The notes below the pieces were generated by a model. It had not been told where the DNA came from. It did not search any database and saw nothing but the letters and a program-made list of their open reading frames with translations. The position numbers and the translations under genes were made by a program. A stretch of 64,000 nucleotides of DNA from Octopus vulgaris (lineage: Eukaryota): NCBI GenBank assembly GCA_951406725.2, contig OX597830.1, forward strand, positions 28,520,001 to 28,584,000. Reading direction: 5' to 3'. Shown here piece by piece: positions 1-57,193 of this stretch (position 1 is the stretch's first letter; every line of letters starts with the position of its first letter).

Positions 1-860
1 CTCCCTTCTCTTCTTTGCCCCTCATGGGCTCAACTCTCCTTTTCTCTTCCTCTAACCTCTTCCCCTCGTGATATAGACTGATACTTGCCTCTCTACCCCT
101 CACAACTACTTCTTCTCACCCACCTCTCCTCTCTAGTTCCGACTCCTACTTCTTCTCTTCACTCCTACACACCTTCTCCTTTCCCCTTCATCGTCATCTC
201 TCCCTCATAAGACCACCCTACCACTAAACATTCCACCTCCACCTTCACCATCCTTCCCATCACACCTAACCCCATCCCTTACATCCACTCGTAAATAACC
301 CACCTCTACCCCCTACCCACATACCCCACCTTCTCCCCACCCTCAGACTAACCCACACCCACTCTTGCTTTCCCCACCCTCGCCTCTCCTACCTCCCAAC
401 ATCATCACACCATATCAAACACCACTACTCCATACACGACCATACCACATAAGACATCACATCACAACACACAATCACGCACACACCAGTACTGACCACT
501 TCCCAGGCCCACATTTTCACACCCACACATACACGCACACATCAAGATCAACAGCCCTCTTGCACACGCACATAAAATTCTCTTATACACAGGCACGCGA
601 ACCTTCGTTTCGGGATCACAACTACTTTATTATATCCCCTTCTTCCTAGATGTCCTGTGTGACCCATTTGTCCGGCCTTCGCCTTGATAGATCGCTAGCC
701 ACTACACATTCTTTATTTTCTCTCCTTGTTTCTTTCTGTGTTCCTTACTTTGGCTCGAAACGTTAAAAACTTTTTTCCCTTCCCGAGCGTTAAACTAATA
801 CATCTATTTGTTGTCTACACCACCTGTCTTCGTCTTTTTTTTTTATGAAATTCTCCCTAT
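1..860 (+). mobile_element. Family H non-coding repeat, long copy (HHR core partly deleted)
   Basis: 680-860 matches the unit at 13488, 20875 and 56998 (cgcc(a/t)tgatagatcg...ggctcgaaacg...caccacctgtcttcgtc...ctccc-TA). About 510-680 also aligns with 13295-13490. Extension further left is inferred only from the continuing C-rich composition. Confidence 0.7.
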
Positions 861-13229: not shown

Positions 13230-13697
13230 GAGTAGGGCGGGGGGCATTTTGCCACATCACAACACACCACCCACAACACACCACCCACACACCCATCGCC
13301 ACATATCCACACCCACACATACATACACACACACGTCCAGACCACCAGCCTTCTTTCATACGCACATACATACTCTCTTATACACACACGCACCTTTATG
13401 TTGGGGTCACCTTCTTATTGGAAGTCACTTGACCCTGTTATCTCCCCTACTGTCCTTCTCGCGTCTGACCACTGTCCAAAGTCAGGACGCCATGATAGAT
13501 CGTTAGCTCCTACACGCATTTTTTCTCTCTTTGTTTCTCTCCCTGTTTTTTTTCTGTGTATCTTTCTGTCGAAGAGCGTAGGCTCGAAACGTAAAAGACT
13601 TTTGCTATTTCTATTCCTGAGCGTTATACTAATATATTTGTTTGTTTGTACTCCACCTGCCTTCGTCTTTTGTTTATTTTTGTAAACTTTCCCGTTA
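13230..13697 (+). mobile_element. Family H non-coding repeat with minimal hammerhead motif
   Basis: Same 3' unit as the other copies. HHR-like motif tcttt-CTGTCGA-a-gagc-gtag-gctc-GAAA-cg-TA-aaaga at 13561-13598; ends in (TA)n. Left boundary approximate. Confidence 0.8.
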
Positions 13698-15170
13698 TAT
13701 ATATATATATATTAATGTGATCACTGCATCGACTCGTCATTGCAGGTGACAGCCGTCAGTGCCTCTCTGATTCGTGCGTTCCTCATCTACGTTGCTCATA
13801 ACGCTTGTCGTATTCCGTCAACCAGCGTTTCAGATGCTTTCCGATTTCCCTCCGTCTGCGCCAGTACTACTCGACAACAGCGCGAGTCCACCGATTGTCA
13901 GGTTCGCCGACAATATATATGTATGTATATATATAAGGAATCTTTACTCATAGTACTAATTTGCTTGTGGACCCAGGATTAATTGCACCCATACAGTGTC
14001 AATATATTCTTTTAAATTGTTTATTTAATGATAAGAACTATCTAACTTTAATGATTATGCAATGTTTATTAAGCGTATTTAATATACTCTGGGTACTTGT
14101 GAATTTTATTCATGATAATAACTAACAAGCGATTTGGCCTTAAGTATTAAACGCCCAATTGTAAGTGGATTTATAATTGTGTACTGTAGTGTGCCTATAA
14201 GATGGAATTTTCTTAGGTACTTGTATACATCTAATTACTAACACAATTTGCTATATATGAGGTTAGGTCCAAATTTATTTTCTAGCAGCCTTTACAGAGA
14301 CCCGCTGTAATACCTCTACTAGTTTCCTCCCCTTAACTATAACCCGAGTCTATTTTCCGTTTTTTTTTTTTTGACCGTTGTCTCATGTATGTTATATCGT
14401 TAAGCTGCAGAAGGACATAAGCGGGCTTGCACCAATTATATTATTGTCTTCTTCCCTGGACCCTTTATTTTTTCTTATTTATTTTTATTGACATATCCAT
14501 TGTAACGGTTTTAACTTCTGACCTCGGTTCAAATATAATTTGACCAATTATAGAGACCACTGGGCATAGACTTGCCCTATTGTGGACTCTAAGTGGAGCT
14601 CTTGGGTAATACTTCAGTGAGTTCACTTTCTTAAGTACCCTACGTTAATTTTTGGGATACATTTTAAACTTGTATTTACTCGTTAGCATAGGTACTGCCC
14701 TTTCATAATCATGCTAGTAAATTTTCTTGCATTATGTTACTTTGATAAATTTTAAAAGATCTTGGCTCCCCCTTAAATTGAAACTAACCGTAAAATATAT
14801 TTTATTATTCCCTCGACCATTACTATATCACTATTTTACCTACAGACCTCGTAACCCCAAGATGGTTGATTATATGCATTCGATATATTAGGCTTCTAGA
14901 CTTATTTTATAAGCCATGTTTTCTTACCTATTCTTTATTTTGTTTATTTTGGATGCTCTTGCTTTTACTGTAATTTGAATGTCCGATGGAGATGAAGAAT
15001 TTTGCTTACGCATTTATTTATAGACAGTGTTTGGAAACGGCTGCAGAAGCGGTAGTAAGATTTGTTACGTCAAATATATGTTATATCATGCTTTGTATTA
15101 AAAAATAAGTAATAAATGTGGTCCAATCGATGTGTTTGTTTGCCTGATGTTTTCTCCATTTTCTGATTAT

Positions 15171-20834: not shown

Positions 20835-20865
<31 letters not shown>

Positions 20866-20874
20866 CGTGATCAC

Positions 20875-21063
20875 CGCCATGATAGATCGTTAGTCACTAC
20901 ACACATTTTTTACTCTCCTTGTTATTTCTGTGTACCTTTCTGTAGAAGAGCGTAGGCTCGAAACGTAAAAGACTGTTTCTATTCCTGGGAGTTATACTAA
21001 TACATCTGTTTGTTTTGTATACCACCTGTCTTCGTCTTTTGTTTTTTTCGTAAACTTTCCCTA
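20875..21063 (+). mobile_element. Family H short copy with hammerhead motif
   Basis: ccttt-CTGTAGA-a-gagc-gtag-gctc-GAAA-cg-TA-aaaga at 20935-20972; flanked by (TA)n. Confidence 0.8.
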
Positions 21064-21383
21064 TATATATATATTTATATATATCACCGTGATAAAATTA
21101 ATATAAACAGCACTCTGCAATGTTTCACCATAAAAGAGAATTATATTTGTAACTAAATGAACAAGGGTGTTAGTAAACACCTACATTGCTTGAAATAAGA
21201 GTGAAAGCCTTCCAATGACGCACTTAACGCTCGTGAATGAAAACATATACAATAACAGAGACCATAATTGTACGAAAATTACTGATCGCAAATTCTCAAT
21301 ATTGACGTCGGTTTCTGCTATTTCCGTTGTCTCATCAGTTAAGCCGGTTACGTGTGTGTGTGTGTGTATGTGTGTGTGTGTGT

Positions 21384-25292: not shown

Positions 25293-25329
25293 TGTTTCTG
25301 AAGAAGAGTTTTGCTCGAAACGTAAAGCA
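25293..25329 (+). ncRNA. Minimal type I hammerhead ribozyme motif with canonical core
   Basis: Stem I tgttt/aagca, CTGAAGA core, extra A, stem II gagt-ttt-gctc, GAAA, palindromic ACGT in place of stem III, predicted cleavage after GUA (25324). Confidence 0.65.
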
Positions 25330-27868: not shown

Positions 27869-28057
27869 AGGCTGAAATCACAAACAAAAAAAAAGTAAAA
27901 GACGAAGACAGGTGGTGTAGACAACAAACAAATGTATTAGTATAACGCTCGGGAAGTGAAGTCTTTAACGTTTCGAGCCTCCCCTCTTCCAAAGAAAGGA
28001 ACACAGAAAGAAACAAGGAGAGAAAATAAAGAAAGTGTAGTGGCTAGCAATCTATCA
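27869..28057 (-). mobile_element. Family H short copy (degenerate hammerhead)
   Basis: Reverse complement matches the family; core mutated to CTTTGGA and stem II is broken. A further 3' scrap lies at about 28181-28220. Confidence 0.75.
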
Positions 28058-56997: not shown

Positions 56998-57189
56998 CGC
57001 CATGATAGATCGGTAGCCACTACACAGATTTTTTGTCTCTCCTTGTTTCTTTCTGTATTCCTTTCTGTGGAAGAGCGTAGGCTCGAAACGTAAAAGGCTT
57101 TTTTCAATTCGCGAGATTATACTAATACACCTGGGTTTTTTTCTACTACACCACCTGTCTTCGTGTTTTGTTTTTTTCGTGAATTATCT

Positions 57190-57193
<4 letters not shown>
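56998..57193 (+). mobile_element. Family H short copy with hammerhead motif
   Basis: ccttt-CTGTGGA-a-gagc-gtag-gctc-GAAA-cg-TA-aaagg at 57060-57097; ends ctccc(TA)n. Confidence 0.8.

Follow-up and report, generated by a model that had tools for sequence, protein, structure and literature searches.

The closest described systems are Penelope-like elements (PLEs) that carry hammerheads. Neptune-clade EN+ PLEs (PMC8557442) have one open reading frame (ORF) carrying an RT followed by a GIY-YIG endonuclease and, between the two, a CX2-5CxxC linker, which marks Neptune and Nematis PLEs. They target microsatellites, and their pseudo-LTRs, which come from partial tandems, contain the hammerhead. The minimal hammerheads of PLEs (PMC4209133) are type I, with a palindromic 15.2-16.2 pair and no stem III beyond it, an extra base between residues 9 and 10.1, and a G10.1-C11.1 pair; they occur in thousands of solo truncated copies. 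The sole core variant in the part of that paper compared here is U3-A8. PLE hammerheads have low rates in vitro, and an Anolis element inserts without cleavage (PMC4209133, PMC11167929). Cutting by the Anolis hammerhead requires the addition of the element's protein, inactivation of this hammerhead left insertion in vitro unreduced, and the results described in PMC11167929 include no RNA ends at the hammerhead site.

Single changes in the CUGA turn occur in natural hammerheads that keep a low but biologically retained activity. The natural A6C hammerhead (Bcep176) has low but detectable activity (<0.1 per minute), and U4C, found in a viroid, is a known low-activity variant that suffices in vivo (PMC3088659). 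A deep mutational scan gives low activity for single CUGA-turn mutants (PMC9901934); the values compared from it do not include A6U itself. Non-LTR retrozymes (bioRxiv 10.64898/2026.07.22.740005) also carry a type I hammerhead related to that of PLE pseudo-LTRs, and are non-coding tandem units with a hammerhead in each.

Here we analyse a hammerhead-bearing repeat family of Octopus vulgaris, starting from a stretch of 64,000 nucleotides of contig OX597830.1 (the window). Judged by its sequence, the element appears to be of a known kind, an EN+ PLE with a minimal hammerhead, and what appears new is a U fixed at position 6. The largest survey of PLE hammerheads is reportedly that of Lunse et al. 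(2016/17). Its hammerheads were compared through their citation in PMC6765202. In our literature search neither an A6U hammerhead nor a description of this octopus family came up, and the class may be present in Lunse et al. or in supplements; PMC11662667, which the A6U search returned, concerns twister ribozymes. The octopus element differs from the Neptune-clade PLEs of PMC8557442 in its U6 and in a long Pro/Ser/Leu-rich in-frame tail after the endonuclease, and from the PLE hammerheads compared from PMC4209133 in the change of A6 to U with no compensating change. The Bcep176 and viroid variants (PMC3088659) are single loci with a full stem III, whereas here the base is U, the motif is of the dimer type and there are more than 15,000 copies. 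Unlike the retrozymes (bioRxiv 10.64898/2026.07.22.740005), the copies are truncated ends of a coding element.

Copies in the window

Five homologous copies had been predicted in the window and all five are present, with pairwise identities of 69-86% (E 1e-35 to 1e-54) and a common 3' end that adjoins (TA)n-type repeats. Two of the 5' limits had to be moved. The first copy, thought to begin at 680, covers window base 1 and about 80 bp further upstream, into the end of the GIY-YIG frame, and the focal copy starts near 13253 instead of at 13488. The features are the following.

1..860, plus strand: long 5'-truncated copy of subfamily D, with the low-complexity ORF tail, 3' region and pseudo-LTR; its 5' end lies about 80 bp upstream of window base 1, inside the GIY-YIG C-terminus; 11-nt deletion in the hammerhead core
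13253..13697, plus strand: focal 5'-truncated copy, subfamily B; 89% identity over 438 nt with the 3' end of the RT-bearing copy L132
13561..13598, plus strand: minimal type I hammerhead motif of the focal copy, U6 C7 A17
20860..20871, plus strand: 12-bp direct repeat beside a TA run, second copy at 21082-21093, read from the sequence
20875..21063, plus strand: 5'-truncated copy, subfamily C; hammerhead at 20936-20971, U6 A7 A17
25293..25329, plus strand: minimal hammerhead with canonical CUGAAGA core, of a third related lineage and not one of the five copies
27869..28057, minus strand: 5'-truncated copy of subfamily D; decay of the core and of stem II by private mutations
56998..57193, plus strand: 5'-truncated copy between subfamilies D and C; hammerhead at 57060-57097, U6 G7 A17

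As the original prediction read them, three copies have the order stem I / CUGUNGA / extra A / GAGC-GUAG-GCUC / GAAA / CG / UA / stem I, with C, A and G at N7. The assignment to the minimal hammerheads of type I, with stem III palindromic, holds. Stems I and II, the extra base after A9 (between 9 and 10.1) and the palindromic 15.2-16.2 pair are present; these, the G10.1-C11.1 pair, the lack of a stem III beyond and the thousands of solo truncated copies are shared with the motifs described in PMC4209133. In the focal hammerhead, stem I is formed by 13561-13565 with 13594-13598, the core runs from 13566 and the cut is predicted after 13593. The 12-bp repeat around the 20875 insertion is likely, from its sequence, to be the target-site duplication. 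The canonical motif at 25293..25329 adjoins a microsatellite run and provides a natural comparison for the U6 copies.

Rfam returned no hammerhead match for 13400-13700 at E <= 10; for the whole window, the best 150 of 288 matches were only microsatellite-driven miRNA matches. Microsatellites also dominated the output of a repeat search of the window. Two other features were seen. A stop-free frame of 535 aa just upstream of the window (L061 2112-3719, minus strand) resembles the RT of an unrelated LINE, and another family has, at about L038 2523 (minus strand), a hammerhead-like motif in which the core is the canonical CUGAUGA and stem II is longer.

A coding element

The five copies are the 5'-truncated ends of a protein-coding Penelope-like retrotransposon with RT and GIY-YIG domains. 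Followed in the 5' direction, the first copy leads into the C-terminus of a GIY-YIG frame immediately beyond the window edge, and among 30 genomic matches to window positions 1-640 the longer ones (L068, L069, L083, L091, L093) extend into RT sequence. As longer copies run into an RT and GIY-YIG ORF, those in the window are truncated ends of an autonomous element. Of 8,803 candidates in a genome search with this RT, 150 were scored, and many of these have equal scores and long open frames. Twenty loci were taken from these matches. The CUGUNGA hammerhead lies on the ORF strand in 18 of the 20 and on both sides of the ORF in seven, and six have stop-free frames of 1,177-1,214 aa. In the youngest subfamily the element is full-length and both pseudo-LTRs carry the U6 motif; the layout is pseudo-LTR, RT and GIY-YIG ORF, pseudo-LTR, and the unit at L126 measures 4,507 bp. 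Two stop-free ORFs, that of L126 among them, match RT (PF00078, E 2e-7 and 6e-8) and GIY-YIG (PF01541, E 0.0076, which falls under the Pfam curated cut-off), and the motifs YIDD, C-x4-C-x2-C (linker, residue 836) and YIG are present. The frameshifted frame of L091 gave no Pfam match.

The Penelope derivation proposed for the family is thus borne out by the longer copies, and the predicted kind of ORF, RT plus GIY-YIG ending in the hammerhead unit, was looked for in the genome and found. The further proposal of a non-autonomous or retrozyme-like family fails on the same copies and on the full-length youngest subfamily. The element resembles the EN+ PLEs of PMC8557442 in its single ORF with a C-terminal GIY-YIG endonuclease after the RT, in the direct repeats (pseudo-LTRs) that flank the ORF with a hammerhead in each, and in a common 3' end with varying 5' truncation at AT-rich or microsatellite targets. 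It has the CX2-5CxxC linker between RT and EN, by which the clade appears to be Neptune-type (Neptune or Nematis).

Three further observations concern the ends of the element. At L126 5240-5563, the ORF stays in frame beyond the endonuclease as a Pro/Ser/Leu-rich tail of about 110 aa that differs between copies. Three independent loci (L146-L148, L154, L174) have the same 5' junction, which lies 96 nt upstream from the cut site (L126 position 1529) and is possibly the transcript start. For the terminal repeat and leader of the youngest subfamily, 0.77-0.83 of the words are present in sequencing runs with four organism labels, which suggests that close relatives share them.

Position 6

U6 belongs to the master element and not to the decay of its copies. 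Position 6 was counted genome-wide with exact 27-nt patterns, and among 16,332 copies it is U in 15,730, A in 180 and C or G in 422. The claim that the family amplified with U6 therefore stands; a genome consensus with A6, which would have made these decayed copies, did not appear, and the canonical CUGANGA core is not that of the family. Non-U bases at position 4 number 300, about one-third of them A among 100 matches listed, which places A6 within about twofold of back-mutation, near the mutational background. An alignment of 181 copies not chosen for A6 (F-lineage rows and 30 A6-selected matches were left out) has U in 172, C in six, A in one and a gap in two. All six subfamilies have U6. 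We considered an old basal subfamily with A6 and rejected it: in E, the most divergent subfamily sampled, 100 matches listed of 285 have U in 86, C in eight and A in six.

Related lineages have A6, so A6 to U is the likely direction of change. A sister lineage, whose pseudo-LTRs form a homologous family, accounts for 11,417 exact hammerhead matches genome-wide. Among 100 of these listed, position 4 is C in 74 (U4C, CCGACGA), U in 24 (canonical) and A in two.

Constraint and covariation

Copies were assigned to subfamilies E (23), D (32), C (12), B (25), A2 (20) and A (40), with 29 unassigned, and the order E>D>C>B>A2>A was inferred from trees and divergence. Between the subfamily majorities, the 34 columns of the hammerhead changed seven times, with four changes at N7 and the other three at H17; position 17 is A or U only, never G. 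The 142 gap-free flank columns have 75 changes. In the other 32 hammerhead columns there are none, against about 17 expected from the flank rate over the five subfamily steps. The Poisson probability of zero changes is 5e-8, or 8e-5 without the E>D step, so by this count conservation is far beyond chance. Subfamily E was picked with a pattern in which only positions 6 and 7 of the core were free, and B through its resemblance to the focal copy, which biases both toward a conserved core; D and A, and in part C, were picked by sequence outside the core. Loop II and every base of stem II are as invariant within the lineage as the core, a pattern that fits sequence constraint beyond catalysis.

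The covariation of stem I proposed within the family (ccttt:aaagg at 57060) did not survive. The C of the fifth pair is a subfamily trait that is usually mismatched with A (partner G in one of seven subfamily-D copies tallied), and the G at 57097 is a private mutation of the copy at 56998..57193. Between lineages (14 sequences), pair 4 of stem I covaries as C-G/G-C, a single event; loop II differs and stem II is paired in 100% of cells.

Traces of cleavage and predicted folding

The 5' ends of the copies were searched for a sharp genomic footprint of cleavage and none was found. The templates of the genomic copies were uncut at the predicted site, since the copies end about 105 nt beyond it. 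Of 31 distinct loci with the 5' leader, none begins within 10 nt of the cut site. The 5'-end profile of 5,305 young copies with a downstream anchor has 68 starts at about -2 to +1 and 27 at -10 to -8; starts close to the cut site exceed those in the vicinity by a factor of about two at most. For 100 listed of the 198 starts at -10 to +4, a hand tally gave 36 at -10 to -3, 37 at -2 to +2, 14 at +3/+4 and 13 indels, and at most 21 fit the exact cut position against nine at a comparable A-run 7 nt upstream. TA microhomology can explain this weak excess. The 5'-end excess is also uninformative because the Anolis element, the hammerhead of which is active with protein, likewise lacks RNA ends at its site in the data described (PMC11167929). 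Contigs of four presumed-RNA runs yielded neither start or end sites nor backward joints, and are not counted as evidence.

Folding energies of the three window copies are no better than those of shuffles (z -0.05, 0.10 and -0.89). Motif order and evolution, rather than these energies, carry the case for a hammerhead. With U6, the UGU arm is predicted to be able to pair with ACG of stem III in a short helix, with a median pair probability of 0.86 in 77 U6 copies versus 0.04 in 25 natural A6 copies; in a context of about 210 nt the values are 0.44 and 0.22. The predicted energy for freeing the core is small, higher for U6 than A6 with A7 or U7 and lower with C7 or G7. The helix permitted by U6 is a lead only. 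The idea that A6U and U4C stabilise one locking helix was rejected, as the pair probability in the sister lineage is about 0.01 with any base at position 4.

Discussion

We favour the reading, at a probability of roughly 0.55, that the U6 motif is an attenuated ribozyme, slow but maintained, in the terminal repeat of the PLE. Cutting would then need a partner RNA and the element's protein. By analogy with other PLEs, the endonuclease would nick AT-rich DNA, reverse transcription would start about 105 nt downstream of the hammerhead on uncut RNA, and most insertion events would stop early and leave ends of 100-900 bp. Fast cleavage would detach the RT start site from the rest of the template, and slow cleavage may accordingly be tolerated or favoured; A6U would be one way of slowing it, and U4C in the sister lineage another. 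A broader proposal, which we hold only tentatively and think rather unlikely, is that PLEs in this genome have been selected for weakened hammerheads. Two lineages that are related, and that both exceed 11,000 copies, would have independently gained changes in the CUGA turn (A6U fixed, U4C in the majority) while hammerhead-type constraint was kept elsewhere, and U6 would be a working natural variant, rescued by the dimer or the element's protein and tuned to leave the template intact until it has been copied.

The motif may instead no longer cleave, U6 having turned catalysis off, and persist as a hammerhead-shaped fold or fixed sequence that is bound by the element's protein or overlaps an internal promoter in the pseudo-LTR. 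We regard this as a serious contender, though we would not expect it to be the correct account. The 5' ends without a clear cleavage footprint agree with it, as do the invariance of loop II, which equals that of the core, and the helix that U6 permits (0.86 versus 0.04). Anolis hammerhead mutants still insert (PMC11167929) and Naiad PLEs proliferate without canonical hammerheads (PMC8557442). However, changes are confined to N7 and H17, the two positions that catalysis leaves free, with 17 A or U in the subfamily majorities, and it is not obvious why a promoter or protein site should obey this rule; freeing the core is predicted to cost little, and at matched N7 the cost is not uniformly greater for U6. 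That the hammerhead is an unselected relic, killed long ago by A6U and passively carried, would suit a consensus core that includes A6 (PMC3088659) and a folding energy no better than shuffles, but the absence of change in 32 columns where about 17 were expected largely refutes it, and we consider it very improbable. Least credible of all is a non-autonomous, retrozyme-like family spreading via RNA circles made by the hammerhead. One 492-bp tandem array (L146-L148), composed of the pseudo-LTR end and 5' leader with a hammerhead per unit, resembles such units; its junction, however, lies 96 nt upstream of the cut site and not at it, and the copies are dispersed, have a common 3' end and continue 5' into an intact RT and GIY-YIG ORF. 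Non-coding tandem units occur in that one array elsewhere and not among the window copies, for which a retrozyme-like origin is refuted; they are solo ends of the coding element.

The family constitutes a natural experiment, with an intact young element, a master copy that departs from the core consensus and natural A6 copies as controls, and offers a natural test of whether PLEs need RNA cutting at all. If U6 cuts, as an attenuated ribozyme would, the natural hammerhead consensus broadens, and descriptor searches that require CUGANGA (such as that described in PMC8557442) miss very large families. If it does not cut, a ribozyme fold is being kept under selection for a non-catalytic job.
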